Assembly (NCBI GenBank): GCA_040752415.1
Contig: JBFMGU010000133.1
Span: forward strand, 1 to 29,017
Reading direction: 5' to 3'
Source: Myxococcota bacterium
GTDB taxonomy: Bacteria; Myxococcota; JACRCW01
Length of the DNA stretch: 29,017 nucleotides
Part shown: positions 2,865-26,633 of the stretch, one piece after another
Position numbering within the stretch: position 1 is the first letter of the stretch
How the letters are laid out: each line of letters starts with the position of its first letter
Translations under genes and position numbers: made by a program
The notes under the pieces: model-generated
What the model was told of the DNA's origin: nothing
What the model saw: the letters and a program-made list of their open reading frames with translations, nothing else
The model's database searches: none

Positions 2865-3839
2865 TCAGGCACGGGACGCCACGGGCGCGGCGGTGGGCGG
2901 ACGCTGGAAGCGCTGGGGGAAGAGCTCCCGCAGGAGTGCGTGCATGTGCGACGCGTTGGCCTCCAGGGCCTCCTTGCGCGCCACGTCGACGAGCTCGTCG
3001 GCGAACTCACCGCAGGTCTTGAAGCGGTTGCCGGGCTTGCGCTCCAGCGCCTTGAGCATGGCGTTCTGCAGCCGACGGGGAATCTCGCCCTCGACCTTGC
3101 GCGGCTTGACGAACTTGGCGTCCTTGACGCGCTCCATCAGGTCCACCTCGGTCTCGCCCGGCGCCACGTAGTACGCGCGTCGACCGGTGCAGAGCTCGTA
3201 GAGGACCAGGCCCACGGCGAACTCGTCGGTGCGACCGTCCAGCGGCTCACCGCGGATCTGCTCCGGCGCCATGAAGCTGAGCTTGCCCTTCACGCCCACG
3301 TTGAGACTGGTGAAGCCCTCCAGCGCGGAGAGCTTGGCAATGCCAAAGTCCGCCACCTTCACCTGGCCGGCCAGGCTGCAGAAGAGGTTCTCCGGGCTGA
3401 TGTCGCGGTGTATGATGCCAAAGGGCCGTCCCGACGACGGAGAGCGCGCCTGGTGCACGTAGTCCAGCCCGCGCAGCGCCTGGATGCAGACGTAGATGGC
3501 CACCGCCATGCTGATGCCCACACCCTGCTCGATGGAGGCGCGCTGCACGTCGGAGAGGTCCGGGCCGTCCATCATCTCCATGACCATGTAGTAGCGGCCG
3601 TAGAACTCCCCGCTCTCATAGACCTGGACGATGTTGGGGTGGCGCAGCATGGTGGTGACGTCGGCCTCGGTGAGGAACATGTCCACCACGTCCGCACGGC
3701 CCTCCAGCTCCGGCAGCAGACGCTTGAGCACGAGCGGAGGAGAGCCCGGGGGCGCGTTCATGCGCTGCGCCTCGAACACCTCGCTCATGCCGCCCTGCGC
3801 CAGGCGCCGGATGAGGACGTAGTTGCCGAACTGCTCCAT
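2865..3839 (-). CDS. Hanks-type Ser/Thr protein kinase (kinase domain only, 324 aa)
   Basis: LAQGGMSEV, LVLKRL, HPNIVQV, HRDISPEN, DFGIAK, KGKLSFMAPEQ. No transmembrane or sensor extension. Confidence 0.93.
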   Translation of the reverse strand: MEQFGNYVLIRRLAQGGMSEVFEAQRMNAPPGSPPLVLKRLLPELEGRADVVDMFLTEADVTTMLRHPNIVQVYESGEFYGRYYMVMEMMDGPDLSDVQRASIEQGVGISMAVAIYVCIQALRGLDYVHQARSPSSGRPFGIIHRDISPENLFCSLAGQVKVADFGIAKLSALEGFTSLNVGVKGKLSFMAPEQIRGEPLDGRTDEFAVGLVLYELCTGRRAYYVAPGETEVDLMERVKDAKFVKPRKVEGEIPRRLQNAMLKALERKPGNRFKTCGEFADELVDVARKEALEANASHMHALLRELFPQRFQRPPTAAPVASRA

Positions 3840-3923
3840 GACGGGTGACCGCGCTCTCCATGCGCCTCGACGGGAATTCGGGCGCCGACAGACGCTAGCA
3901 GCCGCCGGCTCCCCCGAGAAGCC

Positions 3924-4457
3924 TCAAGGTACGCCCGCGTCCTGCTCCAGCCTGGGCATCCGCAAGGTCTCGAGCCGCAGCGTGGGACGCAGACAACCCG
4001 CGCCCGCCGTCACCGACACCACACGCACCGCCACCGCCTGGCGCAGCGCCGCACGCGCGTCCTCATCCAGGCCCGGATCCGTGGGGATCAGCGTGGGCCC
4101 CTCCGGTCGGGAGCGCGGCACGCACGCCACCACCAGTCGATCCGTCGCCAGCGGCGCGCCCTGGGCATCCACGAGCTGCAGTCGGAGATGGACGTCCTGC
4201 GGGATCTTCTCCGTCGACGTGAAGGTGATCCCCGCCGGCCCCTCGCCACCCGGCGCCAGCTCCACGACGATCCCGGGGACACCACCATCCACCACGACGA
4301 GGGTCGCGCCGCCACCGTCGAGCGGGGTCAACCGCTGCGCCGCGGATTGGAGCGCGCCGGTCCCCTCCGACGGTTTCTCCTTCTCCCGGCGGGAGCACGC
4401 CGCCACGCACGCAAGGGCCAGGAGACATGCAACGGCAGCACGAACGGGAGCGGGCAT
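3924..4457 (-). CDS. Hypothetical lipoprotein, 177 aa
   Basis: Signal peptide with lipobox-like VAAC (MPAPVRAAVACLLALACVAAC); co-oriented just upstream of the kinase. Confidence 0.65.
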   Translation of the reverse strand: MPAPVRAAVACLLALACVAACSRREKEKPSEGTGALQSAAQRLTPLDGGGATLVVVDGGVPGIVVELAPGGEGPAGITFTSTEKIPQDVHLRLQLVDAQGAPLATDRLVVACVPRSRPEGPTLIPTDPGLDEDARAALRQAVAVRVVSVTAGAGCLRPTLRLETLRMPRLEQDAGVP

Positions 4458-4593
4458 GGCGGCAACCTACCGCACAACGCGGGCGCGAGGTGACCGGGGT
4501 CACGAGGGCGGCCAGTGTCGCGCGGGGTCCGGGTGGCGTGTAACCTGCCGCGTCCTGAATGGGGGAAACCCCGGCGAGAACATGGAGGATGCC

Positions 4594-6873
4594 GTGAGGA
4601 AGCAGGCGTGGCTGTTGGGTGCGGTGCTGAGCCTGACGGGCTGTCCCGACTGCAGTGAGCTGCTGGAGGGACCGGGGTTCTACGGGAAGATCACGCTGGC
4701 GGGCGGTTCCTCGTCGACGGCGGGAGCGGAGAAGCCGGCGGGGGGGCTGGCGCTTCCGATTGCCCGCGCGGTGCGCACGCTGCCGTCCAACATGCGCACG
4801 CTGGCCAACCACGTCCTGGCCGACCACAACGGCACGCCGCGCTTCTCCGGTCCGCAGAAGCCCGCGCAGCGCGAGCCTCTCGTCGAGAAATGGCGCCCGG
4901 GGCAGGTCATTGTGGCCAGCACGCTGCCGCAGCGTCGCAACCTGGGTCAGCTCACCGCCTCGCTCAACACCTCGCTGCAGCCGCTGCAGATGACCGCGCG
5001 CCTGGCCGCCTGCAACGAGGCCACCACGTGCCTGTGGAAGGTGCATGATCGCGACGGGAAGCTCATTGACCTCGAGGCCACGCGTCGCGCCGCGGAGCAC
5101 ATGAACACCGCGCGAGAGGTCCGCTACGCCGAGCTGAACCGCATCCGCGTGGCCATGGCCGAGCCCAACGACGAGTACCGGGGCCTGCAGTGGCACTACG
5201 ACCTGATGAACCTGCCCGCGGCGTGGGACGTCACCACCGGGAGCAACAACGTCACGGTCGCGGTGATCGACACCGGGATCAGCTACGCCAACCCCGACTT
5301 CACCGGTCGGCTGGGCAGCGGCGTGGACCTGATCAGCGAGGCCACCATCTCCAACGACGGCGACGGTCGCGACAACGACCCCGAGGATCCCGGCGACGAC
5401 CCCGCGGCCGGTGGCGGCACGTTCCACGGCACGCACGTGGCGGGCACCATTGGGGCGGCCAGCGACAACGACACCGGCGTGGCGGGCGTGTCCTGGCAGG
5501 GCGTCATCCTGCCGGTGCGCGCGCTGGGCATTGGCGGCGGAACGGACTTCGACATCGCCGGCGGCGTGCGTTGGGCCATTGGCGAGGACGTGGAAGGCGT
5601 CTCCGGCAATGACCGGCCCGCCGACGTCATCAACATGTCGCTGGGAGGTGCGGGCAACAGCTTCACCGAGGAGGAGGCCATCGAGGCCGCAGTGTCGGCG
5701 GGCGCGCTGGTGTTCGTGGCGGCGGGGAACGAAGACCAGGATGCCAGCAGCTTCACGCCGGCCAACATCGAGGCGGCCATCACCGTGGGAGCGGTGAACG
5801 CCGCGGGCTCCCGCGCAAGCTACAGCAACTTCGGCTCGGCGGTGGACGTCATGGCGCCGGGCGGGCAGATGGAGGAGGACCGCACCGGAGATGGCTACGG
5901 CGACGGCGTCCTCTCCACGCTGCGCACCAGCTACGACTTCGTCCACGGCACCTCCATGGCCACCCCACACGTGGCGGGGCTGGGCGTGCTGATGAAGTCG
6001 CTCAACCCGGCGATCACGCAGGAGGACGCGGTGGCCATCCTGAAGGACACCGCGCGCACGGAGGACCAGTTCCGCTGCGACGAGTGCGGCGGCGCGGCCC
6101 TCATCGACGCGGCCTCGGTGGTGGCGCGACTGGCGGGCGGTGCCAACGCGCCGTTCCTCTCCGTGAGCCCGGGCGGTGCGTTCCTGGCGGCGCGGGAGAA
6201 CCAGCTCACCGTCACCGTGCGCAACAGCGGCGCGGGCTCACTGGCGTGGAGCGCGGAGTTCGAGGGCAACCCGCAGGGCTTCTCCATTGACGGCGCCACC
6301 AGCGGCTCCCTGGATTCCCGGCAGAGCACGACGCTGAATGTGGTGCTGAACCGGCAAGCACGGTCCGGCGTGGCCACGCTGCTGGTGCGTGCGCCCAATG
6401 AAGACAACCAGGACCGTCGCATCTCCCTGCGTTACGACGAAGCGCTCAGCCGCAAGAAGCCCGACGTGCCCGAGGCGATTGTGGGCGCGCTCATCCGCAA
6501 GGGGGAGGAGCTGGAGGTGGCCAATGACAAGAACGGAGACCCGGCCGCGCGCCTGGCCAAGCGTGACGACGGATTCACCTTCAAGCTGGAGCCGCTGGAT
6601 CCCAACGAGTACCTGATCGTGGGAATCACCGACGACAACGGCAATGGCCAGTGGGAAGACGGCGAAGGCATTGGCCTCTACCCGGACCTGGCGGACCCGA
6701 AGTTCGTGAAGCTGGAAGAAGACCAGAAGCTCACCGACGTGAACTTCGTGGTGCGACCCACGTTCCTGGGTGGCGAGAACACCTGCCCGGAGAACAGCCA
6801 CGCCGACGGAGAGAACTGCATCTGCGACAGCGCCTTCCACGTCTCCGACGACGGACGCTCCTGCGTGCAGTGA
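4594..6873 (+). CDS. Subtilisin-like S8 serine protease, lipoprotein, with C-terminal Ig-like, Ca-binding-loop and EGF-like Cys modules
   Basis: Catalytic triad VAVIDTG / HGTHVAGTI / GTSMATPHVAG, oxyanion AAGNE and the NDGDGRDNDPEDPGD insertion. GGAGG precedes GTG 4594, lipobox LTGC. The track's start at 3823 is over-extended. Confidence 0.93.
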   Translation: MRKQAWLLGAVLSLTGCPDCSELLEGPGFYGKITLAGGSSSTAGAEKPAGGLALPIARAVRTLPSNMRTLANHVLADHNGTPRFSGPQKPAQREPLVEKWRPGQVIVASTLPQRRNLGQLTASLNTSLQPLQMTARLAACNEATTCLWKVHDRDGKLIDLEATRRAAEHMNTAREVRYAELNRIRVAMAEPNDEYRGLQWHYDLMNLPAAWDVTTGSNNVTVAVIDTGISYANPDFTGRLGSGVDLISEATISNDGDGRDNDPEDPGDDPAAGGGTFHGTHVAGTIGAASDNDTGVAGVSWQGVILPVRALGIGGGTDFDIAGGVRWAIGEDVEGVSGNDRPADVINMSLGGAGNSFTEEEAIEAAVSAGALVFVAAGNEDQDASSFTPANIEAAITVGAVNAAGSRASYSNFGSAVDVMAPGGQMEEDRTGDGYGDGVLSTLRTSYDFVHGTSMATPHVAGLGVLMKSLNPAITQEDAVAILKDTARTEDQFRCDECGGAALIDAASVVARLAGGANAPFLSVSPGGAFLAARENQLTVTVRNSGAGSLAWSAEFEGNPQGFSIDGATSGSLDSRQSTTLNVVLNRQARSGVATLLVRAPNEDNQDRRISLRYDEALSRKKPDVPEAIVGALIRKGEELEVANDKNGDPAARLAKRDDGFTFKLEPLDPNEYLIVGITDDNGNGQWEDGEGIGLYPDLADPKFVKLEEDQKLTDVNFVVRPTFLGGENTCPENSHADGENCICDSAFHVSDDGRSCVQ

Positions 6874-6898
6874 CGCGTGGACCGCGGGCGAACCGCGG

Positions 6899-7018
6899 GG
6901 CGCTGACCAGGGCGGCGAGGGCCCGCCGCACTCCAGGTCGAGGACCGTTCCCGACGGTGAAGACACGCTGGCGCTGGCCAGGGCGGCGAGGGCCCGCCGC
7001 ACTCCAGGTCGTGGTCCG
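6899..7018. repeat. Two direct copies of a ~49-bp palindromic REP-like element between convergent genes
   Basis: Identical 34-bp core CCAGGGCGGCGAGGGCCCGCCGCACTCCAGGTCG at 6907-6940 and 6978-7011 (period 71 bp), each with the hairpin GCGGCG-AGGGCC-CGCCGC. Similarity extends into the flanks. Confidence 0.8.
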
Positions 7019-7091
7019 CTTGCGACGTTCGCGAAACGCGATGGGTTGCGTGTGCTGACCGGAGCGCTGGCGTCGTCGTCGCGGACGGTTG

Positions 7092-9476
7092 TTACATCCG
7101 GTAGGAGGCGCGCAGCAGCAGCATCTGGTTGGCCTGGTGCAGGTCACGCGGGATGTACTTGCCGTCGCCGAGGATGAACTCCTGGATGAGCGGCTCCTCC
7201 TCGAACATGGCCATGTAGCTGAGGTCAAACGTGAGACCCCAGGCCACGCGGTACATGGCGCTGGCGTCGAAGATGAAGGCCTGCCCGGTGGCCTTGGGCG
7301 GATAGAGCGCGGCGTCCGCGCCGGGGTTGGAGCCGTTGGCGCGGTAATCCACGTCGGACGTGTAGTAGCGCTCGTTCTCGCTCAGCTCGTAGGTGAAGCC
7401 GCTGTCCAGGAACAGGTAATCGAATGCCTGCACGCCCACGCGGGCCCGGGCAATCAGCGCGCGGTTGTGCCAGGAATCAATGGCGGTGGCGCTGATGTCG
7501 TAGGTGATGTTGTCGTAGAGCGTGGGGTCACGCAGGCCGGCGGTGAGGCCCACGCGCACGTAGTCATCCTGGTTGGGATAGCGGTCCTTGCCCTCGTTGT
7601 CGGCGTCGCACTCGTCCTTGGTGTAGTAGAGCTCCGGCACGCCGTCCTTGCCGGGATTGCCGTCCGCGTCCTTGCGGTCCCGCGCGCACGCGCTGCCGCC
7701 AATGGGCCGCGGCTTGGGGTGATCCCGACGCCACTCCATGAACGCCTCGCTGTAGAGCTGCGCGGACGCGGTGGGGAAGAAGAAGCCCATGGGCGAGACC
7801 CAGCCCAGCACGCGGAGGCGCTCGCGCTGCACCATGCCCAGGTTCTCGAGGTTGAAGACCTTGCTGTCGATCTGGGTCTTCATGCGCGCCACCTGCTTCT
7901 CCCCGTAGGGATTGCCGTTCTTGCGGCGCGCGTCGTCGACCTGCGCGAACGCGTACTGCTGCAGCATGTCGCTCTGGTAGTAGTTCCAGCTCAACGCCGT
8001 CACGTAGGACTGGTAGTGGTGGAACTGCACGTTGAGGGAGAGCGGCAGGTCACCGCGGAAGGTCATGTCGGCGAGCGCCTCGCGCAGGCCAAAGCTCGTG
8101 TCCAGCAGCGGGTGGGAGTAGTCGGTGATGCGCAGCGGGTCGTCGCCCTTGGGCGGGGTGCCCAGCACCGTGTCGTTGTCGATGGCTTCCTGCAGGTTCC
8201 ACGCGCGCAGGCCCCACGGGTCCCAGCTCAGGCGCAGCGAGAAGTTCAGCGGCGCGGTGGGACGGAAGGTGGTGGCGTTGTTGATGAGCACCGCGTCCAC
8301 GACGTGCACCGCGGTGTCCAGGGGATCCCGTCCCAACCGCTCGATCACCGGCTGGCTGTTGGCCAGGTCACGGTTGCGCATCTGGTAGCGCGGCAGCGGC
8401 GTGAAGAACGTGGCCTGCACGCTGGTGTCGGAGGTGAACATGGGCAGGCGCAGCGCGAAGTAGCCGCCCGCCGTCATGAACTGCGCGTGCAGGACCGTCT
8501 GCGCCTCCCAGAAGTCGAACCACCACTGCTTGAAGTCCGGGTCCTCCAGCGAGCTGGTCACCGGGTAGGTGGAGACGTGGCACCAATTGGCCTCCCTGCG
8601 CTCCTTGGTGCACTCCGTGTCGGTGGGGAAGAACCCGTCGACGTTGCGGTAGTCATGATCCAGCCACATGCGCGGGTGCAGCGGATTGGGCATGAACCCG
8701 GCGAAGCCGCCCACGCGGATCATGTCCAGGATGCCCACGTCCGCGTGCACGCCGTCGACGGTGGACTGGTACGTGTACGGCACAATGGCGCGCCCCAGCG
8801 TCAGCGAGAACAGTGGGTGCCGCACGGCGAGGTTGGCCTCGGTGACGCGGTCGAACGTGTAGTAACGCGGGTGCCGCACGCCGCTGCGACCACGGTAGCG
8901 CTCCGTGCTCAGCAGCGAGTCACCGTTGGTGTTGATGGGCCGGTAGTACGCGCGCTGCTGCATGAAGCCGTCAAAGTGCAGCCCCACCGGCAGACCGAAC
9001 AACGTGTCGGCGTCGACCTGCGCGCCGATCTGCCCGTAGCCCCACTCCACCTGCAGCGGGCTGGACACGGTGTAGAGCGTGCTGGTCCACACCTTCCCGT
9101 CGACGGTGTTGGGCATGGGCCGCGGCACGTACTTCTCCGCCATGATGGGCAGCTTGCGTGCGCCCGGCGGGGAGAGCACCTGCGGCCACGTCTGCGGCAC
9201 CGCGGGAGCCGTCTTGGGTGGTGCCTTGCCCGCGTCGGCGGGTGGGGCATTCACCGACGGAGCCTGAGCGGCCGGGGCCTCCCCCGTCGTCGCAGGAGCG
9301 GGTGCGGGGGCGGGCTGCGCGGGAGCGGGCTCCGCCGCGGGAGTGGGCTGCGGTGCGGGCGCGGGTTGCTGCGCGGGCGTGGGTTGCGCGGTGGCCTGAC
9401 GCGCGGCCGCGCGTGCGTCGACGATGGAGCCGAGCGTCAGGCCGAGCGCGAGGAGGAGCGCGTTGCGTCGCATCAT
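7092..9476 (-). CDS. Putative outer-membrane beta-barrel protein (candidate porin partner of the multiheme cytochrome), 794 aa
   Basis: Sec signal MMRRNALLLALGLTLGSIVDARA, a P/A/Q-rich linker, and many amphipathic strands (VRVGLTAGLRD, YDISATAIDS, LIARARVGVQAF, LFLDSGFTYELS, FIFDASAMYRV, LTFDLSYMAMF). C-terminal strand LLLRASYRM resembles a BAM beta-signal. ATG 9476 overlaps the cytochrome stop (ATGA). Confidence 0.75.
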   Translation of the reverse strand: MMRRNALLLALGLTLGSIVDARAAARQATAQPTPAQQPAPAPQPTPAAEPAPAQPAPAPAPATTGEAPAAQAPSVNAPPADAGKAPPKTAPAVPQTWPQVLSPPGARKLPIMAEKYVPRPMPNTVDGKVWTSTLYTVSSPLQVEWGYGQIGAQVDADTLFGLPVGLHFDGFMQQRAYYRPINTNGDSLLSTERYRGRSGVRHPRYYTFDRVTEANLAVRHPLFSLTLGRAIVPYTYQSTVDGVHADVGILDMIRVGGFAGFMPNPLHPRMWLDHDYRNVDGFFPTDTECTKERREANWCHVSTYPVTSSLEDPDFKQWWFDFWEAQTVLHAQFMTAGGYFALRLPMFTSDTSVQATFFTPLPRYQMRNRDLANSQPVIERLGRDPLDTAVHVVDAVLINNATTFRPTAPLNFSLRLSWDPWGLRAWNLQEAIDNDTVLGTPPKGDDPLRITDYSHPLLDTSFGLREALADMTFRGDLPLSLNVQFHHYQSYVTALSWNYYQSDMLQQYAFAQVDDARRKNGNPYGEKQVARMKTQIDSKVFNLENLGMVQRERLRVLGWVSPMGFFFPTASAQLYSEAFMEWRRDHPKPRPIGGSACARDRKDADGNPGKDGVPELYYTKDECDADNEGKDRYPNQDDYVRVGLTAGLRDPTLYDNITYDISATAIDSWHNRALIARARVGVQAFDYLFLDSGFTYELSENERYYTSDVDYRANGSNPGADAALYPPKATGQAFIFDASAMYRVAWGLTFDLSYMAMFEEEPLIQEFILGDGKYIPRDLHQANQMLLLRASYRM

Positions 9477-11875
9477 TCGAGCCCCCGCCGCAGGCCTTGA
9501 CCCTGCTTGCCGCCAGGAACCTTGCGCTTCCAGCTGATCTGGTTGTGGCACGGGAGGCAGTTCGGGTCGGGCAGGTTCCAGTGGTAGTTCTCGCCGACGG
9601 GATCCAGGAAGTCCTGCATGTGGCAGCTGATGCACTCCGTGCTCATGCCGGAATACACGTTGTTGCCGTGGCACTGTCGACAATCCAGCACGCGGTGCAC
9701 CCCTTGTAGCGGGAAGCCCGTGGTGGCGTGCGTGAAGGAGGAGGGCATCCAGCCCTGCACGCGGTGGCACTGCGCGCAGTTGCGCAATGCGCCGGCGTGG
9801 ATGTCGTCCTGCTTGTGACAGGTCCAGCACTGCGTGCCCGTACCGGTGCGGTCCACGGCGCCACCGTGACACTTGGTGCACTCCAGGTTGTCATGCTGAC
9901 CGGCGAGCGAGAACGGCGGCACGTCGTGGTAGCGGTCCACGATGCGCGTGCGCCAGTCGTCGGTGCCGTGGCAACGCGCGCACGTCGACGCGGCCAGGAT
10001 GCCGTGCGGGTCACCGTGGCAATCCTTGCAGCTGGTGCCCTGGGAACGGAACGTCCAGTCCACCTGCGGCGTGGGGTCGTTCTTCGTCTTCTCGACGAAA
10101 TGGCAGCCCACGCACTGCGCGCGCGCATGCGCGTCGGTGAGGGCGTACTTGGTCATGGTGTTGTGGTTGAACTTCAACGCGCCGCCCTGCGTGGTGTGGC
10201 ACTTGGCGCAGTCATTCCCCAGCTTGCCTGCGTGGATGTCCTGCCCGCCGTGGCAGCTCACGCACTGCGTCTCCTTCACCGCGTAGCTCGCGGGCGCGGT
10301 GGAATGACATTTGGCGCAGCTCACCGACGCATGCCGCCCCGTGAGCGGATACTTCGTCTGCGTGTTGTGATCGAAGTTCACCTGCTGGAACGCAAAGCCC
10401 TCGGTGTGACACTTCTTGCAGTCCGGTCCGCCGCCAAGGGTTCCGTTGTGCTTGTCCTCGTGACAGCTGATGCAGTCGGCGCCCACCTTCAGCTTCTTGA
10501 GTCCCTCGTCGTGGCACTTCTCGCACGAGACCGCGGCGTGACTGCCGGCCTGCGCAAACACGCTGGAGAGCTTGTCATGTGACGGGAGGCGCAGATTGTC
10601 GGAGCCGGGCACGTGGCACTTGGTGCACATGCCGGGGTTGTCGTTGAATTGCCCGTCGTGCTCGGTGGCGTGGCTGTGGCAATCCACGCACTGCGTGCTC
10701 TTGAACCGCTCAAAGGTATCTTCCGCGGTGGCCTTGCCCTTGACGCGGTGGCATTCCGTGCAGGCCACGGTGGCGTGACGCCCGGTGAGCTCCATCTTGG
10801 TCTCCGCGCCGTGGCTGAAGGAGACGTTGGAGCCTTTGAAGCCGCTGGGCTGGTGGCACTTGTTGCACTCGATCTTCTCGAAGCGGTCCACGCCGTTGAC
10901 GATGTGGATGTCATCCTCGCGGTGGCACCCGATGCAGTTGATGGACGGGTTGGGCACCACCTCCTTGGGATGGCACTTCTGACACGACGTCTTCGCGTGC
11001 TGGAAGGTCAGCGGGAACTCGGTCTTGTTGTGGTCGAACTTGTAGTCCTTCCAGTTGGCCTTCTCCTCGGCATGGCACTTGTCACAGGAGCGGCCTTCCG
11101 CGGTGTACGTGTTCTTGTGGACGTCCTTGTGGCAGCTGATGCAGCCCTGCGGACGCGACGACATCTTGAAGATCTTTCCGCCGGGATGACATTCCACGCA
11201 GCGGATGTCGTCGTGGGCGCCCTTGAGCGCGTACTCCGCGGTCTTGGCGTGGTTGAAGGTCTTGAGGATCTGGTTCTGGCTGGAGATGGAGCGCGCATCA
11301 TAGGTGTGGCAGGCCTTGCACTCCATCAGTTCCTTGCGCGTGGACGCGAAGTTGTGGACGTCCTGGTGGCAGGAGAGGCACTTCTGGTCCAGGCCAATGA
11401 GCTTGGGGCTGCCGCTCTTGTCGAACTTCTTGGTGTGGCAATCCACGCACTTGACGCGTTTGTGCGCGCCTTCCAGCTCGTAGCCGGTGAGCTCATGCGG
11501 GAAGGAGTCGCGGCCGCCGTAGGGACGCCAGTCAATGATCTGCGCCTTCTCGCCCTTGTGGTCGGCGTGACACTTCTCGCAGTTCTTCTGGTACTCCTTG
11601 CGTGCGTGCAGGCCCTCGCCCGCGTCGATCCTGGCCTTCAGGTCGCGGTGGTCATGGCAGCCCAGGCACTTGTTCCGCTCAATGCCGCCGCCCACGCCTT
11701 CCGCGTGACACTTCTTGCAGTCCAGGTTGGCGTGGCCCTTCACGCGGGGCCCGGGCTCGGCGGAGAAGAAGTCCACCGCGCGCGCGTCGGCGACGACGAG
11801 ACCGACCCACGCGACCAACAGCGCGAAGGGGGCCCACGTCTTCAGAAGGTGCAACACCCTGCTCAGCGTGCTCAC
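9473..11875 (-). CDS. Exported multiheme cytochrome c with 30 CxxCH motifs in ten tri-heme modules (~800 aa)
   Basis: 30 CxxCH counted by hand (CKKCH to CLPCH); repeating unit FxH..(Y/F)xLxGxH..CxxCH..CxxCH..H..CxxCH; signal peptide ending ADARA. Start uncertain: GTG 11875 (after AAAGG) or TTG 11899. Confidence 0.95.
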   Translation of the reverse strand: MSTLSRVLHLLKTWAPFALLVAWVGLVVADARAVDFFSAEPGPRVKGHANLDCKKCHAEGVGGGIERNKCLGCHDHRDLKARIDAGEGLHARKEYQKNCEKCHADHKGEKAQIIDWRPYGGRDSFPHELTGYELEGAHKRVKCVDCHTKKFDKSGSPKLIGLDQKCLSCHQDVHNFASTRKELMECKACHTYDARSISSQNQILKTFNHAKTAEYALKGAHDDIRCVECHPGGKIFKMSSRPQGCISCHKDVHKNTYTAEGRSCDKCHAEEKANWKDYKFDHNKTEFPLTFQHAKTSCQKCHPKEVVPNPSINCIGCHREDDIHIVNGVDRFEKIECNKCHQPSGFKGSNVSFSHGAETKMELTGRHATVACTECHRVKGKATAEDTFERFKSTQCVDCHSHATEHDGQFNDNPGMCTKCHVPGSDNLRLPSHDKLSSVFAQAGSHAAVSCEKCHDEGLKKLKVGADCISCHEDKHNGTLGGGPDCKKCHTEGFAFQQVNFDHNTQTKYPLTGRHASVSCAKCHSTAPASYAVKETQCVSCHGGQDIHAGKLGNDCAKCHTTQGGALKFNHNTMTKYALTDAHARAQCVGCHFVEKTKNDPTPQVDWTFRSQGTSCKDCHGDPHGILAASTCARCHGTDDWRTRIVDRYHDVPPFSLAGQHDNLECTKCHGGAVDRTGTGTQCWTCHKQDDIHAGALRNCAQCHRVQGWMPSSFTHATTGFPLQGVHRVLDCRQCHGNNVYSGMSTECISCHMQDFLDPVGENYHWNLPDPNCLPCHNQISWKRKVPGGKQGQGLRRGLE

Positions 11876-11956
11876 GCGGCCTTTGCGCGCGCCGGTCAAA
11901 ACCGAGGGGCCAACGGCAGGTGGGCGCGAGGACCCGCCGCGGCCCTGACCACGAGG

Positions 11957-13957
11957 TCAGTAGTACAGCACCACCCCGATGTGAAGGGTGCCGATCACGA
12001 AGAGGACGATGGAAGTGACGATGTGGAAGCGCTTCCACTTGCCCATGAGCCGCTGGGCAGTGCCGTAGAACCGCTGCCGACGCTCCAGCACCAGCTTGCT
12101 GTCAATCAGCTCCAGGGTCTGCTTGCGCAGCGCCTTGTTCTTGATGTTCTTGAGCCCGCCCAGGCGCAGCTGCAGGAGTCGTCGCCAGCGCTGGATGTCG
12201 GAGGTGGCGAGGAAGAGGAGGAACTTCCAGCTGCCCAGGTTCTCATCCTTGGGCTGACGGGCGCGCTCCTCCTCCATGATCAGCTCCAGCATGTTGATGC
12301 TGCGGGTGTGCTGGTTCCACTGGCTGGCGAGCGTGGTGATGGACTTGTCCAGGTCCTTCAGCTCCCGGTCAATGCTGAATTCCTTCCCGGGAATCTGGTT
12401 GGCGATGTACTGGCCGAGCAGACCCGAGATGACGACGAGGGTCATGGCGTACACGCCCAGCGAGGGCCACTTGGAGAAGTTGAGGTTTCCGTGCAGGAAC
12501 ACCAGCGCGGGGCCCAACGTCCCCAGCGCGTTGTGCAGCGCGAACCAGGTGTACTTGGAGCCGATGAAGCTGAGCGCGGGGATGCGGTTGCGCATGCTGT
12601 AGATGAGCGTGCCGCCCATGCAGCTGGCGCCGATGATGCCCAGCCACAACCCGAGGCCACGGCCGCTGTCGAACCCGCCCTCCATCTGGTTGTCCTCGGG
12701 GAAGAAGGGCATGAAGGACAGGTCGGGGATCCAGCGACGGAAAATCCACTCGAACAGGCACGCCACGGTGAGGATGCCGGCGAGCCAGTAGCTGAACCTG
12801 GGTAGCCAGCGACCACCCTCCTGCGTGGAGAGTCCCTTCTCGAACGGGTCCACCGCGCACGCGTCCTCGGTGGCCACGTTGGCGGACAGGCCGAAGAGCA
12901 GCTCGGGCACCGCGTCGATCATGGAGCCGGTGGGGCAGGCGCTGATGCAGGCCATGTCGTCGTAGCCGGCGCAGCGGTCACACTTCACCGCGTTCTTCTT
13001 GGGGACCTTCTTGCCCGCGTTGTCCCAGACCGTGGTGTCGAAGTTCTCGGGGATGTCGTAGATGAAGATGGAGTCGTTGGGGCAGTTGCGCGCACAGACG
13101 TTGCAGCCCGTGCAGTTCTCCATGGCAATGCGGATTTCATTGCTGATGGGGTCGCGGTTGATCGCGTTGAAGTTGCAATCAATCAGGCAGCGCGGGTCGT
13201 AACACTGACGACACGAGATGCTGAAGTTGATGAGCCCCACCTGCGGGCCAAAGCGCTCCAGGCGGGAGAAGCCATGGCGGTCCTCACAGGCCTGCACGCA
13301 CTTGTCGCAGTCAATGCACAGCTCCAGCTGGCGGATCTTGGTGCGCGTGGAGAAGCTGAAACCGTTCTTGACGAAGAAGTCGAAGATCTCCTCGCGTCCG
13401 CTCTCGCGCAGCTGCTGGATGCGGTGGATCCAGTTCTCGGCGTGGTTGCGCAGCTCATCCTGGAACTTGGGATGCTTCTGCAGCACCTCCGCCGCCCGAC
13501 GCGCGGGCACGCGGATGAGCTGCACCTCGGTGATGGCGTAGACGTGGAGGCCGCCGGCGGCGGCGGTGATGTCGTCGGCGAAGAAGTCGCCGGCGCCGAA
13601 CACGGCCAGCGTCTGGCCTTCCGCCTTGAACGTCTCCGCCTTCACCTTCTTCTTGGAAGCGGCCAGGCCATCCTCGGTGCCCACCGCCACGCCCACCTGG
13701 CCGGCGACGACGAAGTTGAGGCTGGGCTCCGGGGCCTTGGGGGCATCTCCGCCGAGGAAGAGCACGTCGCGCTCCACCACCTCACCCTTGGCGGTGGCCT
13801 CGAAGATCTTGAGCACCTCGTCGGGCGCGTCCTGGAAGAGCGGGAGGCGACGGAGCGCGGAGGCGGGTGGCGGCGGCGCCTTGATGTTCTTGGCGGCCAG
13901 CTTGGCTTTCTTCTCGGCAAGCTTGGCGGCCTTGTCTGCTGCGGCTGTCGCGGCCAT
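11957..13957 (-). CDS. Fusion of a degenerate cyclic-nucleotide-binding (CAP/CRP-like) domain, a 4x[4Fe-4S] ferredoxin (DmsB/NrfC-like) and a four-His cytochrome b/ferric-reductase-like membrane domain
   Basis: LRRLPLFQ...FVVAGQVGV...LAVFGAGDFF; Cys groups CIDCDKCVQAC, CRQCYDPRCLIDC, CTGCNVCARNCP and CDRCAGYDDMACISACP; about 5 TM helices with two His pairs each 14 residues apart (ALH..FLH, RFH..TLH). GGAGG lies 7 nt before the ATG. Confidence 0.9.
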   Translation of the reverse strand: MAATAAADKAAKLAEKKAKLAAKNIKAPPPPASALRRLPLFQDAPDEVLKIFEATAKGEVVERDVLFLGGDAPKAPEPSLNFVVAGQVGVAVGTEDGLAASKKKVKAETFKAEGQTLAVFGAGDFFADDITAAAGGLHVYAITEVQLIRVPARRAAEVLQKHPKFQDELRNHAENWIHRIQQLRESGREEIFDFFVKNGFSFSTRTKIRQLELCIDCDKCVQACEDRHGFSRLERFGPQVGLINFSISCRQCYDPRCLIDCNFNAINRDPISNEIRIAMENCTGCNVCARNCPNDSIFIYDIPENFDTTVWDNAGKKVPKKNAVKCDRCAGYDDMACISACPTGSMIDAVPELLFGLSANVATEDACAVDPFEKGLSTQEGGRWLPRFSYWLAGILTVACLFEWIFRRWIPDLSFMPFFPEDNQMEGGFDSGRGLGLWLGIIGASCMGGTLIYSMRNRIPALSFIGSKYTWFALHNALGTLGPALVFLHGNLNFSKWPSLGVYAMTLVVISGLLGQYIANQIPGKEFSIDRELKDLDKSITTLASQWNQHTRSINMLELIMEEERARQPKDENLGSWKFLLFLATSDIQRWRRLLQLRLGGLKNIKNKALRKQTLELIDSKLVLERRQRFYGTAQRLMGKWKRFHIVTSIVLFVIGTLHIGVVLYY

Positions 13958-14032
13958 GCGTGAACCTCCCTGCCCCGCAATCCCGACGATCTGAGCACAA
14001 TGCGCGAACGCCGGCCATCCGTTGGCGCAGGA

Positions 14033-16831
14033 TCAGCGCCCGCCCCGTTTCCCTTTGCCCTTCTTGCCCTTCTTGGGTGCTGGCGCCGAGTCCCCGCCCT
14101 CCTCCCCCATGGCCTGCAGCGCCTCCGCGGCCTGGATGCGACGCTCGTCCCGCTCGTCGGAGTTCTCGAGGAACTGCTTGAGCGCCTCCACGGCGCCCTT
14201 CTTGTCCTTCTCCGCCTGCAACGCGAGGCCGAAATACAGGTGCGCGCCGGGTTCCTCATTGGCCTTGGCGGCCTGCTTGAGGACCTTGAGGCCCTGCTCC
14301 TTCTGGCCCGCGTCGTAGAGCGCCTTGCCAATCACGCCAGCGGCCTTGGGGTCGGCCTTGGCCATCTCCGGCAGCTTCTCCGGGGTGGCGCGCGCCAGGC
14401 CCGTGTAGGACCGCAGCGCACTCTCCCAGTCGCCACTGGCCACCGCGGCGGCGCCGGCTCCCACGGCCACGTCGGGGTCGGTGGGGTCCAGCTCCGCGGC
14501 CTTCTTCAGCTCCTTCTCGGCGGCGGCGGACTGCCCCTTCTGCGCCAACGCGCGGGCCTTCAGCGCGCTGGCGCGCGGACTCTCGAAGCCGGCGTTGTCC
14601 AGCGCCTGGAGGGCCTTCATGGCGCCCGCCACGTCGCCATCATCCAGCATCACGCGCGCTTGCAGCAGGTGCGCGGCGGGATCCTGCGGATTGAGGTCCA
14701 TGGCGTCCTTGATGTGCTTGAGCGCGTCGGTGCGGTCTCCCGCGGCGGCCTCGGCGCGCGCCAGGGCCAGCATCAGCGCGGCGTCCTTCTTCGCCTCCTC
14801 CAGGGCCTTCTGCAGCTCGTCCTTGGCCTCCCGCGCCTTGCCCTGCATGACCAGCGCGTCGGCGCGCACCACGGCCCCGACGGCACGCAGGCGGAGCATG
14901 GCGGCGCGCGGGCTCAGGTCAGGCACGTCCAGCGCGGCGGCAATCTCGCCTTCCGGGAAGTAGCGTGCGTGCAGGAGCGTCTCCCACGGCGTGATGGCGC
15001 CGGGACGCACCACCACGTTGCCGAACGGGAGGCGCAGCACGGGGAACTCGCTCTTGGCCTTGAACTGCGCCTTGACCTCACGCACCCATTCCTGGCCGCG
15101 CGCGGCGGCGGCGGAGGCACGCACCACGTCCTTGTGGAACGCCACCTCCGCCTCCTCCTTCTCCGCCGCCTTCTGGAAGAGCGAGAGCGCCTTGTCGACG
15201 TCACCCATGGCCAGGCGGACCCGCGCCACCTCGGCGAGCGCCTGGGGGACCTCGTCGGTCATGGAGGCGGCGCGCTCCAGGAAGGGACCGGCCTTGTCTT
15301 CCTGGCCGCGCAGGTACGCGCTGAGCGCCAGGCCCATGGCCACCCGCGCCGCCATGTCCGGGTGCGTGGCCTTGCTGTCCAGCAACGACTGCGCGGCCTT
15401 CTCGAAGGTGGCGCGCGCGGTGTCGTCGGCGTGGGAGGTGAACAGGCCCAGGATGACGCCCGGGCCGTGGTTGGGAGAGAGCTTCACCAGCCGCTCGGCC
15501 AGGGCGCGGGCCTCCTTCTCGTCGCCAAGGCGGGCGTGCGCGCGGGCCAGGCTGTGCAGCGCCAGGGGCAGCGTGGGGTCCTTGCGGTGGGCCTTGCGGT
15601 AGGCCTCGGCGGCGGCGGCGTCATCACCCTTGTCCTCCGCCATGCGCCCCACCACCACGTCGAGCCACGCGTCCTCCGGGTGCTCCTCCAGCGCCTTCTT
15701 GAGGTCCTCCTCCAGCGCGGCGTCCTTCTTCCCGCCGTGGCTGGCCACGAGGTGACGCGCAAGCAATGCGGCGGCGGTACGCAGGCCCGGGCTGCCTTCC
15801 TCACCCACGGCGTTGAGGGCGCGCTCGGCGGACTCCCGGAAGTAGTCGCCACCGCCGAGGTCCGCGGCACGCACGGCGAGCGCGAGGGCCATCAGGGGCT
15901 GCGCCGCCTCGAACTCCGGGGAGCCGCTGTTGACCTTGTCCAGGATGTCCGCGGCCTGCACGTAGGAGGAAGGCGCGTCCTCCCGCAGGAGCGCATAGGC
16001 GCGCTGCAGCGGCGTGCCGGTCTTGCTGGCGGAGAGCTTCTTGTGGACGAGGAAACCCGCAGGCACACCGGCCAGCACCGCAAACGAGAAGACGACGATG
16101 GTGCTGGCGATGCGCAAACCCGCTCCCGAGCTCGTCTGGCCCTGCTTGGCCTGGTTCACATCCAGCGGCAACACCCCGGCAGAGAGCAGGCTCTGCAGGG
16201 CCTTGTCCAGATCTACTTGACCGAGGGCGGGCTCGGCGGTGGCAGCTCCGGCGGCGGGGGCGTCGAGGGCACCGGCCTTCACCTGCTCCAGGCTGACCAT
16301 CCGGGTGGCTTCCTTCTTGGCCTCCTGGCTGACCACCGCGCCGGGCGCGGCCTCCACCTTCTTGTAGCCGCGCTTGATGAGGTTGCGCGTGCGGTCGAGC
16401 TGCTTGCGGCTCTCGGCGTCGTCGGGGTTGAGCGCAACCGCCTGCTCCAGGAACTTCACCGCCTGTTCACGCAGGCCCTTGAGGAGCAGGTAGCGACCCA
16501 GCAGCGCGTAGGGACGGGAGTCCTTGGGCGCCACCTGGATGGCCTTCTTGAGATTGTCGACGGCCTCCTTGGCGTTGACCTGCTCCCAGTGCGCCTCCGC
16601 CAGGTACAGCAGCCCCTCCAGGTTGTTGGGGTTCTGCTTGAGCCCGTCCTCGGCGATCTTCTGGGCTTCCGCCCACGCCTTGTTCTTCAGCTTCTCCTGG
16701 GCCTGCTGCACCCACGGCGGCACCCCCTCCGCCAGCTCCAACATGGCGATGGAGAAGAACTGCGTCTGCGCCGGGTTGAACGTCTTGGGCGGCGCGGCAG
16801 TGGCCTTGGTGGGGTTCGGTGCAGGAGGCAC
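14033..16831 (-). CDS. Large tetratricopeptide-repeat protein with a single internal transmembrane helix
   Basis: Repeated TPR-like units (A..L.KA...P.D..A...LG) on both sides of the hydrophobic segment IASTIVVFSFAVLAGVPAGFLV; Lys-rich C-terminus. Start uncertain (GTG 16831 or ATG 16744). Confidence 0.85.
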   Translation of the reverse strand: MPPAPNPTKATAAPPKTFNPAQTQFFSIAMLELAEGVPPWVQQAQEKLKNKAWAEAQKIAEDGLKQNPNNLEGLLYLAEAHWEQVNAKEAVDNLKKAIQVAPKDSRPYALLGRYLLLKGLREQAVKFLEQAVALNPDDAESRKQLDRTRNLIKRGYKKVEAAPGAVVSQEAKKEATRMVSLEQVKAGALDAPAAGAATAEPALGQVDLDKALQSLLSAGVLPLDVNQAKQGQTSSGAGLRIASTIVVFSFAVLAGVPAGFLVHKKLSASKTGTPLQRAYALLREDAPSSYVQAADILDKVNSGSPEFEAAQPLMALALAVRAADLGGGDYFRESAERALNAVGEEGSPGLRTAAALLARHLVASHGGKKDAALEEDLKKALEEHPEDAWLDVVVGRMAEDKGDDAAAAEAYRKAHRKDPTLPLALHSLARAHARLGDEKEARALAERLVKLSPNHGPGVILGLFTSHADDTARATFEKAAQSLLDSKATHPDMAARVAMGLALSAYLRGQEDKAGPFLERAASMTDEVPQALAEVARVRLAMGDVDKALSLFQKAAEKEEAEVAFHKDVVRASAAAARGQEWVREVKAQFKAKSEFPVLRLPFGNVVVRPGAITPWETLLHARYFPEGEIAAALDVPDLSPRAAMLRLRAVGAVVRADALVMQGKAREAKDELQKALEEAKKDAALMLALARAEAAAGDRTDALKHIKDAMDLNPQDPAAHLLQARVMLDDGDVAGAMKALQALDNAGFESPRASALKARALAQKGQSAAAEKELKKAAELDPTDPDVAVGAGAAAVASGDWESALRSYTGLARATPEKLPEMAKADPKAAGVIGKALYDAGQKEQGLKVLKQAAKANEEPGAHLYFGLALQAEKDKKGAVEALKQFLENSDERDERRIQAAEALQAMGEEGGDSAPAPKKGKKGKGKRGGR

Positions 16832-16980
16832 GGCCGGGGTAGCCTAGGGCAGACCCGCCGGGGCCACCAAGCGGCTTGATGCGCAGGATCCGCGCGCTTG
16901 TCCACGCCCTGGACGCCGCTTCCGCACGGCGTGAAGCAGGGCTGTACAGGAGACGCCGATACCTTCGCCGAAGGGGTCTT

Positions 16981-17589
16981 TCAGCCTTTCCGGCGACGAT
17001 ACTCGCCGCGCTCAGGCATGCCCGCGGGGACCTTGAAGAGCGAGTCGTCCACCTTCAGGGAGATGTCGCGCCGGACAATGCGGCCGACGCCTGCGTCCAA
17101 GATGACCTCGATGGCCACCGGGAGGTTTCCAAGTGACGGGGCGATCCAAGCCCATACCGTCCGCACAGGCACCCCCGAGGTCACGGAAGCCCGCGTCACG
17201 TTCGTATGGATGCCATATACCTTCCGCCTTGTCAGACTTGAGGTCTGCAACAACCGCGTCCGTGTACCAGTACAATGGGTTCGGATCTTCACCCAGCGGA
17301 TTCGGGTCCGACTCGTTGAAGCAAGGTGCGTCGGGCTGAGCATGAACTTCCGCCCTCTGCTCGCGTCATGGAAGTCGACGATCTTCAGCTCGTCATGCAG
17401 GAACTCCCGACGCCAGCTTCCCGCCTTTCGGAAATACAGGCCATCGAACACGCCCCGCCGTTCTGGCGGGAGTGCACCCGTGAGCTCGATTCGGACCCCG
17501 AATTCTGGGCGACTGCCGACAGGTCCGCGCGCACTCAGGTTCGACTTTCGCACTTTTCCCAAGCCATTCCCGGCACTGGCTCGCACCAT
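16981..17589 (-). CDS. Hypothetical protein resembling DUF4412/LolA-like beta-sheet proteins; possibly frameshifted or degraded
   Basis: GLYFRKAGSWRREF..IVDF..KFMLSP and the C-terminal AWIAPSLGNLPV..DISLKVDDSLFKVPAG pattern. The middle segment reads better in another frame; start unclear. Confidence 0.5.
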   Translation of the reverse strand: MVRASAGNGLGKVRKSNLSARGPVGSRPEFGVRIELTGALPPERRGVFDGLYFRKAGSWRREFLHDELKIVDFHDASRGRKFMLSPTHLASTSRTRIRWVKIRTHCTGTRTRLLQTSSLTRRKVYGIHTNVTRASVTSGVPVRTVWAWIAPSLGNLPVAIEVILDAGVGRIVRRDISLKVDDSLFKVPAGMPERGEYRRRKG

Positions 17590-17702
17590 TTCCGACGAGA
17601 GCTTCCTGATCGTAGGGACTTTCTGCACCCCTGGTACGGGGTACCATGTGCAGAAACGGGCACCGGCGTATTTTCTCCGGCCCGCGGCGAGGCCGACCTG
17701 CA

Positions 17703-26309: not shown

Positions 26310-26633
26310 CGGTGCACACCGGCTCCCACCGTGAGCGCTCGTCGACCAGCGTCCGTCCCGCCATCAGCTCCCAACACGCGCCGCCCATTCGCCGGAGATC
26401 AGCGGCGTCCGCGAGGGTTCCCGGCCAGCTCGTCGAGCGTCGGCCGCTGGCCCAGGCGCGCTGCCCCTGAGCTCTCCGGCGGGTGAGGCCCGGCTTCCCA
26501 CGCTCAAGGCCCAGGTGATCGGCACGCCAGCCCCGGCCCCGGCAAGCTTTGCCCCCGCGCCCGGGCGTCTTGCGTTAGGATGCCGCAGCGGCGGACCCTG
26601 CGGGCAAAGAACCACGCAGCCGGGAGACGGGCG

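Follow-up and report, generated by a model that had tools for sequence, protein, structure and literature searches.

A predicted porin-cytochrome electron conduit of the PCC3/PCC4 kind, with a fused iron-sulfur/heme-b inner-membrane protein, in Myxococcota

Can members of the Myxococcota, known mainly as aerobic predators and degraders, pass electrons from the cytoplasm to the cell surface? Porin-cytochrome conduits are the known Gram-negative route for electron exchange with minerals, electrodes and partner cells, and in the Mtr and Pcc systems the electrons enter from the quinone pool. The question is raised by three consecutive genes in a 29,017-nucleotide (nt) stretch of a Myxococcota bacterium (GenBank assembly GCA_040752415.1, contig JBFMGU010000133.1, positions 1 to 29,017), referred to here as the window. 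The genes lie together on the minus strand, were picked out by third-position G+C in DNA of 64-76% G+C, and keep the coordinates of the initial annotation, which had been made from the sequence alone. The locus very probably encodes a conduit. The fuller reading to which we incline, with modest confidence, is that of an envelope-spanning electron conduit of the PCC3/PCC4 kind, with outward flow along a path proposed below. The three genes and the domains of the first are as follows.

Gene 1: 11957..13957, minus strand, 666 amino acids (aa); predicted inner-membrane fusion of a cyclic nucleotide monophosphate (cNMP)-like domain, a four-cluster ferredoxin domain and a five-helix di-heme-b domain
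Gene 1, residues ~35-190: 13388..13855, minus strand; divergent cNMP-binding-like domain
Gene 1, residues 208-350: 12908..13336, minus strand; four [4Fe-4S]-type Cys groups, HycB/HydN-like
Gene 1, residues 386-666: 11960..12802, minus strand; five-helix membrane domain, predicted to hold two b hemes
Gene 2: 9473..11899, minus strand, 808 aa; exported 30-heme c-type cytochrome of ten ~70-aa triheme (c7-like) modules
Gene 3: 7092..9476, minus strand, 794 aa; outer-membrane protein, predicted to form a 22-strand beta-barrel

Genes 1 and 2 are 57 nt apart, and the TGA of gene 2 overlaps the ATG of gene 3 as ATGA at 9473-9476, through which gene 3 is, judging by this arrangement, translationally coupled to gene 2. 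The co-oriented trio with its final ATGA junction was therefore correctly described at the outset.

The second gene supplies what would be the wire. Its product contains exactly 30 CXXCH motifs and 63 His, with no CX3CH or CX4CH, and opens with a signal-peptide-like segment ending in ARA before VD, in keeping with the exported 30-heme cytochrome first proposed; its start is uncertain, being either TTG at 11899 or an in-frame GTG at 11872, 27 nt downstream. The ten modules emerge from motif spacing and from alignment of the parts, and Pfam Cytochrome_C7 matches eight stretches. The closest solved structure is PDB 3ov0 (E 1e-5, residues 468-645), and the repeated triheme modules recall the GSU1996-type c7 polymers that this entry represents, from which gene 2 differs by its ten modules (30 hemes) and its coupling to a barrel gene. 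GSU1996-type polymers have four modules and 12 hemes. Relatives of gene 2 align end to end, with 28 of the 30 heme motifs kept in 34/34 sequences. The other two (residues 476-480, window ~10460-10474, and residues 546-550, window ~10250-10264, both on the minus strand) occur as complete CXXCH in four window-type sequences alone; in the remaining 30 of the 34 the second Cys and the His are retained at both sites and the first Cys is lacking, and in these either the hemes are held by a single thioether or both sites are lost. Identity between subfamilies is highest in module 1 (0.46) and among the lowest in module 10 (0.29, tied with modules 3 and 8), which has an identity of 0.21 to close relatives. 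This gradient matches a conserved inner-membrane partner at module 1 and a fast-evolving barrel at module 10.

The barrel itself is assigned by structure prediction. Gene 3 opens with a signal peptide (residues 1-23), continues as a Pro/Ala-rich linker as far as about residue 115 and has its barrel at 125-793. It has no Pfam or NCBIfam match, and none of 52 barrel-family members matches Pfam at E<=0.1, so the check for MtrB/PioB-family membership came out negative. The window-type family is rare, with five relatives found by word search and 20 profile matches among 1.84 billion representatives. The AF2 model, based on 52 sequences including remote relatives from the loci described below (a 6-sequence run was not usable, with a predicted local distance difference test score, pLDDT, of 46.7), has a pLDDT of 69.3 and a predicted template modelling score (pTM) of 0.71, and its 22 long strands lie within residues 125-793. 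In this model 246 residues reach a pLDDT of at least 90, and ten-residue blocks inside the strands average about 85-97. Strand junctions are mostly of 3-5 residues on one side, with most of the long loops (27-71 residues) opposite, which is the usual outer-membrane pattern. A Foldseek search with the model gave 404 PDB matches at E<=0.001, and all those listed are outer-membrane or envelope barrels, including porins, ushers, TonB-dependent receptors and MtrB. In VIA-align the best matches were substrate-specific porins, with Z as high as 15.2 over ~280 residues. The predicted fold is therefore that of a generic large outer-membrane barrel of no specific known family, and the transmembrane barrel of the initial annotation finds support in all three analyses. 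By standard barrel geometry, 22 strands give a C-alpha diameter near 40 Å, as in TonB-dependent receptors, whose barrels enclose a plug domain, and we estimate that such a lumen would be wide enough for a ~70-residue triheme module. The linker (residues 24-115; window 9132-9407, minus strand) is of low complexity both here, where it is Pro/Ala-rich, and in Kofleriaceae-type counterparts, where it is strongly acidic with Asp/Glu runs.

Modelling of the two proteins as a complex, which had been suggested as a check, predicts that the cytochrome enters the barrel. Modules 8-10 (gene 2 residues 574-808) were chosen for pairing with barrel residues 115-794 because of the conservation gradient, using author-built alignments and leaving the hemes out. 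The median score was 0.62, against 0.22 for the best of three controls; of 157 solved complexes 116 attain that mark, as do 2 of 215 mismatched pairs. The runs share at least 46% of their contacts, and the pLDDT of the partner is at least 59. Gene 2 residues 659-765 make confident contacts within or next to most of the 22 strands, so that the model places the C-terminal modules in the lumen.

At the other end of the proposed path stands gene 1, whose first 380 residues contain no hydrophobic segment (maximum 19-residue hydropathy 1.21) and which thus has no signal peptide. A candidate twin-arginine translocation signal ('LRRLPLF', residues 35-41) was rejected, as no hydrophobic stretch follows it and the segment aligns to the start of the cNMP-binding domain. 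Conservation was read from an alignment of 14 sequences, gene 1 and 13 of its 49 database relatives, at 29-71% identity. The 16 Cys of the ferredoxin-type groups (214/217/220/224, 249/252/257/261, 282/285/288/292 and 326/329/337/341) are invariant in 14/14 sequences. This iron-sulfur (Fe-S) region lies nearest in the PDB to HycB3 (E 1.6e-6) and HycB4 (E 2.1e-6), and with its four Cys groups it resembles the four-cluster ferredoxin subunits of the HycB/HydN/NrfC/DmsB type. The NCBIfam models AegA, PadI and HydN match residues 211-378, all far under their equivalog cut-offs, and the likeness to AegA concerns the N-terminus of that protein. Pfam returns Fer4 families, DUF4405 (E 0.0048) and cNMP_binding (E 0.071) for the whole protein. 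The N-terminal domain is divergent: a profile of 21 such regions found weak matches (best E 0.0043), of which all 24 listed from the PDB are cNMP-binding-domain proteins, and the isolated domain matches PF00027 at E 0.0024 and 18.3 bits, under a cut-off of 27.5. The Gly-Glu and Arg of the phosphate-binding cassette of cNMP domains are, by eye, missing from gene 1.

Hydropathy places transmembrane segments of gene 1 at 388-406, 434-455, 500-518 and 646-664; helix 3 (471-492), rich in His and Gly, falls under the threshold and was assigned from its motif. The motifs are W471x3H475x13H489 in helix 3, S511GLLG515 in helix 4 and W641x3H645x13H659 in helix 5, and H475, H489, H645, H659, G512, G515 and W641 are invariant across the alignment, W471 nearly so. 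The absence of a signal peptide, the Fe-S Cys and the four heme-b-type His of the initial annotation are thus upheld by hydropathy and by conservation. DUF4405 (PF14358) scores 17.8 bits in gene 1 against a cut-off of 26.7 and matches 10/14 family members (best E 2e-5); Ferric_reduct (PF01794) matches 4/14 (best E 0.028). The ferric-reductase domain that was looked for is thus matched weakly in the family, and in the window protein DUF4405 stays under its cut-off. PF13247 matches 12/14 members, yet not gene 1 of the window at E<=0.1. Loop 411-433 carries one Lys/Arg and five Asp/Glu, and the 123-residue loop preceding helix 5 carries 26 Lys/Arg; the N-terminus and Fe-S domain therefore fit the cytoplasmic side, as had been supposed, with helices 3 and 5 parallel. 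H475/H645 would lie towards the inner face and H489/H659 towards the outer one, so that the four His would have the geometry of two stacked b hemes, whose binding is predicted from the motifs. A search by words for split, stand-alone gene-1 membrane domains found one 215-aa fragment only.

If these three products work together, their genes would be expected to travel together, and for the most part they do. A scan of one genome per species confirmed 130 relatives of gene 1, and the counts that follow come from the best 80 loci, whose record titles are nearly all Myxococcota, Kofleriaceae, Haliangiales or the older 'Deltaproteobacteria'. A cytochrome of 23-30 hemes accompanies gene 1 in 64 of the 80. 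It lies directly downstream, as in the window, in 50 loci (type A), and a few kilobases upstream on the opposite strand in 14 (type B). In eight further loci a contig ends less than 1.5 kb from the gene-1 relative, and eight show neither arrangement; seven of the latter have no more than 4.2 kb of upstream sequence and, because five of these seven carry the flavoprotein of type B described below, they are probably type B loci cut by the contig end. Across the loci, 60 open reading frames (ORFs) carry 23-30 CXXCH. Where at least 1.5 kb follows the cytochrome, an ORF of at least 450 aa with a signal-like N-terminus comes next in 51 of 56 cases, and the start-stop junction is close in 48 of 56 (43 overlapping by 10 nt, four by 4 nt and one abutting). 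Conserved synteny, an early expectation for this locus, thus holds widely, with exceptions, among them genome G011 and locus L007, taken up where the reading is weighed.

The barrel-like ORFs that follow these cytochromes show almost no BLAST similarity to gene 3, although 33 complete ones end in YRF. Profile comparison by hhalign matched them to gene 3 at 97.4% (E 1.3e-11) over 446 columns reaching the C-terminal Y-R-F/M, and gene 3 and the locus ORFs are remote homologues on the strength of this match; the type A and type B barrel profiles, which represent two Kofleriaceae subtypes, match each other at E 1.9e-83 (profile-profile). In hmmsearch against the locus ORFs, a barrel profile of six sequences matched L005 alone, and one of 20 sequences gave weak matches (E 3e-6 to 1e-3), all at the expected position. 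Among 401 sampled Myxococcota genomes, at least six have strong barrel matches, and weak ones are concentrated in one family (at least 10 of 20 genomes); two large families of the phylum gave 0/172 and 0/67 matches, and all these counts are a floor. In the four type B loci examined (4/4), an extra ORF with 12-13 hemes stands directly after the barrel gene.

The relatives also suggest where electrons might enter. Directly upstream of the gene-1 homologue, 16 loci (L008, L009, L011, L013, L015-L017, L019, L021, L022, L029, L033, L045, L046, L062 and L068) encode a membrane-anchored 2x[4Fe-4S] protein with a Pyr_redox domain for flavin adenine dinucleotide (FAD) and nicotinamide adenine dinucleotide (phosphate), NAD(P). 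These ORFs, counted by tblastn, are of about 530-740 aa and match Pyr_redox_3/Pyr_redox_2 (Pfam E 5.6e-42). None of the 16 loci is of type A, and the best match to the flavoprotein in the window's genome has 38% identity over 260 residues, on contig C473. In another genome the components are joined: the 750-aa product of L107 (G034:C20, 85-2337, plus strand) joins the five-helix domain to an FAD/NAD(P) oxidoreductase, with two Fe-S motifs and a transmembrane anchor. The same genome holds a 321-aa stand-alone five-helix protein (L109; G034:C8, 1093-2058, minus strand), and both proteins carry two WX3HX13H motifs. Given the fusion in gene 1, the 16 flavoprotein neighbours and the fusion in L107, the five-helix domain is time and again joined to modules for cytoplasmic electron input.

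To which known system, then, does the locus belong? The initial annotation had proposed a differently built conduit without precedent, and that proposal does not survive comparison with PCC3 and PCC4, whose membrane signature and porin-cytochrome pairing, as He et al. (2017, PMC5566968) describe them, are shared here. In the relevant part of that paper, PCC3 and PCC4 are clusters predicted from genomes and made up of a porin, many-heme periplasmic cytochromes and an inner-membrane protein. The membrane proteins have five helices, with SGXXG in helix 4 and WX3HX13H in helices 3 and 5; they are likened to the ferric reductase domain and proposed to be a quinone-active cytochrome b, and no significant similarity is reported even between those of PCC3 and PCC4. 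PCC3 has a periplasmic cytochrome with a median of 21 hemes. PCC4 has, besides its porin and the membrane protein, three periplasmic cytochromes of 4, 5 and 10 hemes, and in its subgroup II a PF13247 Fe-S gene lies just upstream of the membrane protein gene; one fused Fe-S/membrane annotation is treated there as probably two genes (PMC5566968). A later account still calls PCC3 untested (PMC10734462, in the portion dealing with it).

Gene 1 matches this membrane-protein signature exactly at residues 471-489, 511-515 and 641-659, and, as in PCC3 and PCC4, a barrel gene adjoins a gene for a many-heme periplasmic cytochrome (by the ATGA junction and the barrel model). PCC4 subgroup II has its Fe-S gene upstream of the membrane protein gene; in gene 1 an Fe-S domain is present as a fusion, with no PF13247 match at the threshold given above. 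The 12-13-heme ORF after the barrel in type B relatives parallels the extracellular cytochrome of PCC3. The novelty first claimed for the build was overstated, given the PCC3/PCC4 signature of the membrane domain and the neighbouring Fe-S gene already present in PCC4 subgroup II; by motif and gene descriptions, the window conduit is placed within the PCC3/PCC4 kind as a variant. The differences are nonetheless considerable. Unlike PCC3, the window has no gene for an extracellular multiheme cytochrome. Unlike both clusters, four Fe-S clusters and a cNMP-like domain are fused to the membrane domain, as one ORF in full-length relatives; a single 30-heme wire of ten triheme modules replaces the three cytochromes of PCC4; and the carriers are Myxococcota rather than Proteobacteria and Planctomycetes. 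What is new, then, is a true fusion of cNMP-like, four-cluster-ferredoxin and membrane domains, a 30-heme wire, a barrel family without a Pfam model, and myxobacterial hosts. Literature searches, outside which the supplementary carrier lists of PMC5566968 lay, found no description of the fused architecture or of the module in Myxococcota, and DUF4405 occurs in none of the papers listed by a search that included it. A 2026 peat preprint contains nothing that bears on the subject.

More distant systems share parts of the plan. MtrAB/MtrCAB, MtoAB and PioAB likewise have adjacent genes for a periplasmic multiheme cytochrome sheathed by a barrel (here by the complex model, in MtrAB by structure 6r2q). 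Unlike MtrA/DmsE, gene 2 has 30 hemes rather than 10, and the decaheme model TIGR03508 (DmsE/MtrA) scores 43.1 bits against a cut-off of 192.2; unlike MtrB and PioB, gene 3 is outside the Pfam and NCBIfam families and has 22 predicted strands, where MtrB has 26; and the proposed entry is through the Fe-S/heme-b fusion instead of a quinol dehydrogenase of the CymA/NapC type. Geobacter Pcc/Ext clusters pair an OmaB-like 8-heme periplasmic cytochrome with an OmcB-like 12-heme lipoprotein cytochrome, or have Ext-specific cytochromes; the window has no second cytochrome, and ExtN (34 bits, cut-off 200) and GSU2203 (17.5 bits, cut-off 325) match gene 2 under their cut-offs. These sequence comparisons place the window system outside the Mtr/Mto/Pio and the Geobacter Pcc/Ext families. 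In NarHI and Hmc/Tmc, a cytoplasmic multi-cluster Fe-S protein is wired via a di-heme-b membrane subunit, in Hmc/Tmc with a link to a periplasmic multiheme cytochrome c; these are separate subunits of other folds and His spacing, have no barrel and are linked to quinone or sulfate respiration. Comparable with the membrane domain are ferric reductase and NADPH oxidase (PF01794), with two HX13H pairs on helices 3 and 5, two stacked b hemes and electrons that cross the membrane from a cytoplasmic redox domain, a parallel drawn by He et al. in their treatment of the membrane protein (PMC5566968). Gene 1 differs from ferric reductase in having five helices and not six, an N-terminal four-cluster ferredoxin and not a C-terminal FAD/NADPH domain, and, as proposed acceptor, a cytochrome c wire and not O2 or Fe(III) chelates.

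From these parts the following path is proposed. A cytoplasmic donor would reduce the four-cluster ferredoxin domain of gene 1, whose clusters would pass electrons to the inner b heme (H475/H645), near the cytoplasmic face, and thence to the outer b heme (H489/H659), near the periplasmic face. From there they would enter the N-terminal end (module 1) of the 30-heme wire, presumably by direct contact with gene 1, and run to module 10. The last two or three modules would sit inside the 22-strand barrel, where the terminal hemes could reach the cell surface. In this way reducing equivalents would leave the cytoplasm for an acceptor outside the cell or at its surface, with no quinone step being obligatory. 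Outward flow is the most likely direction because ferredoxin-type clusters and NAD(P)-linked flavoproteins would be of low potential and because the membrane potential should aid outward and oppose inward electron movement; cytoplasmic electron input is favoured because 16 relatives have the NAD(P)H/FAD-Fe-S protein upstream. The cytoplasm-to-surface conduit of the initial annotation gains from the barrel, the lumen pose, the co-occurrence of the genes, the cytoplasmic Fe-S domain and the upstream flavoproteins; its direction and its extracellular end point we infer.

Several observations weigh against this reading. The potentials of [4Fe-4S] clusters and hemes are not readable from sequence. 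The window encodes neither a flavin/NAD(P)H module (no flavoprotein gene adjoins gene 1) nor a surface cytochrome, as had been noticed at the outset, so both ends of the chain are open there; no window ORF outside gene 2 has more than one CXXCH. For the complex model hemes were left out and our own alignments used, and its pass may partly reflect likeness, since a cytochrome-in-barrel complex (MtrAB, 6r2q) was already solved. Gene 3 resembles porins generically, and MtrB (6r2q_B), at Foldseek rank 8 (E 4.7e-9, TM 0.29), does no better than other barrels. The linkage of the three genes is not strict: L007 has a gene-1 relative with full flanks and no cytochrome, the only such locus, and the closest relative genome (G011, 92% complete) has the cytochrome (67% identity) and the barrel (46%) with no gene-1 match anywhere. 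From the latter it appears that the cytochrome-barrel pair is the core and that the inner-membrane entry can differ. Finally, PCC3 itself is 'functionally unverified' in the words of a passage of a 2025 preprint (10.1101/2025.02.27.639646).

Such gaps leave room for other explanations, of which the strongest concerns the entry point. The five-helix di-heme-b domain might be a quinol:cytochrome c (or cytochrome c:quinone) oxidoreductase, with the Fe-S/cNMP-like part as a side branch or redox-sensing regulator. A quinone-active cytochrome b was hypothesised for this motif family in the passages cited from He et al. (2017, PMC5566968); ~320-aa stand-alone proteins such as L109 have the same motifs with no Fe-S domain (Atlas clusters of 312-345 aa are a lead only); and the G011 pair implies that other entry points must exist, for example from the quinone pool via another protein. 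We nonetheless consider this unlikely, given that the four-cluster ferredoxin fusion, with its 16/16 invariant Cys, is kept in every full-length relative aligned (14/14), that the 16 upstream flavoproteins and the one fusion are hard to explain unless the cytoplasmic side is an electron path, and that no quinone-site motif was identified in gene 1.

The same hardware might also run the other way, with Fe(II) or Mn(II) minerals, reduced humics or a partner cell as the extracellular donor and an acceptor in the cytoplasm, or it might not cross the outer membrane at all. Inward flow would be in line with PCC3/PCC4 in Fe(II) oxidisers, where the clusters are modelled as uptake routes in the account of PMC5566968, with the raised expression of the PCC3 inner-membrane gene in iron-oxidising Sideroxydans CL21, as a section of the 2025 preprint reports, and with Mtr-type conduits, described as reversible in a part of PMC10734462. 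It is less probable than the quinone explanation: electron entry would work against the membrane potential, and on general bioenergetic grounds low-potential ferredoxin/NAD(P) partners would make uptake from donors in the Fe(II) range uphill. By their record titles the carriers are Kofleriaceae/Haliangiales-type metagenome-assembled genomes, a group not known for lithotrophs. The least probable of the three alternatives makes the 30-heme protein a periplasmic electron store or a reductase of soluble substrates, and the barrel a substrate channel or ordinary porin. It would suit a window with no surface cytochrome and a barrel with no sequence family, with generic porin similarity only and with four strands fewer than MtrB. 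It sits poorly with the cytochrome/barrel junction conserved in 48/56 cases, with a complex model that passes its controls and makes contacts in or beside most of the 22 strands, and with the 12-13-heme cytochrome that type B relatives add after the barrel, as in PCC3.

If the favoured conduit with cytoplasmic input is real, the myxobacterial fusion and the flavoprotein of the sister clusters would give the PCC3/PCC4 membrane protein a testable role, that of a NADPH oxidase (NOX)-like transmembrane gate fed from the cytoplasm. Dozens of Kofleriaceae/Haliangiales-type genomes of soil, sludge and sediment origin would then also encode hardware for extracellular electron transfer, with a bearing on iron, manganese and humic cycling in those settings. 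More tentatively, and with doubt prevailing, many Myxococcota may carry a quinone-bypassing export line from NAD(P)H/ferredoxin through Fe-S clusters, two b hemes and a 30-heme wire to an outer-membrane sheath, which by analogy may be likened to a bacterial NADPH oxidase stretched to the cell surface. Were this true, cytoplasmic reducing power would go directly to minerals, humics, oxygen (as extracellular reactive oxygen) or prey cells. In the part of an activated-sludge secretome paper that concerns them, Myxococcota cytochromes are treated in general terms.

Next to gene 1, on the same strand and ending 75 nt before it, is a gene for a tetratricopeptide repeat (TPR) protein.

TPR gene, possible accessory: 14033..16831, minus strand, 932 aa; Pfam TPR families

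Its product has no N-terminal signal and one internal hydrophobic helix (~residues 240-262). Among window-type relatives, tblastn matches the gene upstream of the gene-1 homologue in L001-L006; L097, L100 and L101, where it matched once more, are the contigs of L005, L003 and L001 respectively. Kofleriaceae-type loci lack it. The protein might act as a scaffold for the conduit or help in its assembly. A scan of 6700-17700 for transcription signals found no promoter-like site and ten terminator-like sites against 7.1 expected, and is uninformative.

Elsewhere in the window's genome, 35 ORFs carry at least four CXXCH, with contigs C157, C60, C495, C209, C169 and C334 among those that hold them. 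Contig C157 (32961-41436) has a cluster of 13-, 11-, 10- and 5-heme ORFs, and the genome also has five 11-heme ORFs of ~1200-1300 aa. The 11-heme ORF of C157 is about 28-33% like the 12-13-heme cytochrome that follows the barrel in type B loci, a weak likeness. These multiheme ORFs are candidate surface partners of the conduit.

The surroundings of related loci offer a few further observations. In three of four type A loci (L025, L043 and L075), a divergent REC + HTH_3 (Cro/C1-type) response regulator stands ~1 kb upstream and may be a local regulator. In L016, the one type B locus tested, an SH3-domain protein precedes the cytochrome. The cytochrome-barrel pair of G011 (L098, G011:C89, 4378-15565) is preceded by a MacB/FtsX-type permease, and upstream of it are also two non-redox ORFs, one of 753 aa for a Ser-rich probable lipoprotein and one of 444 aa that is EF-hand-like. 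In the window, the neighbours at 3823-6873 (plus strand), 2865-3839 (minus), 26580-29015 (plus) and 17646-20891 (plus) are none of them redox-related and are typically myxobacterial; among the products encoded around the conduit genes are an S8 subtilase of 1016 aa, whose gene is convergent with gene 3, a PDZ-domain protein of 1081 aa, two Ser/Thr protein kinases and glycosyltransferases.

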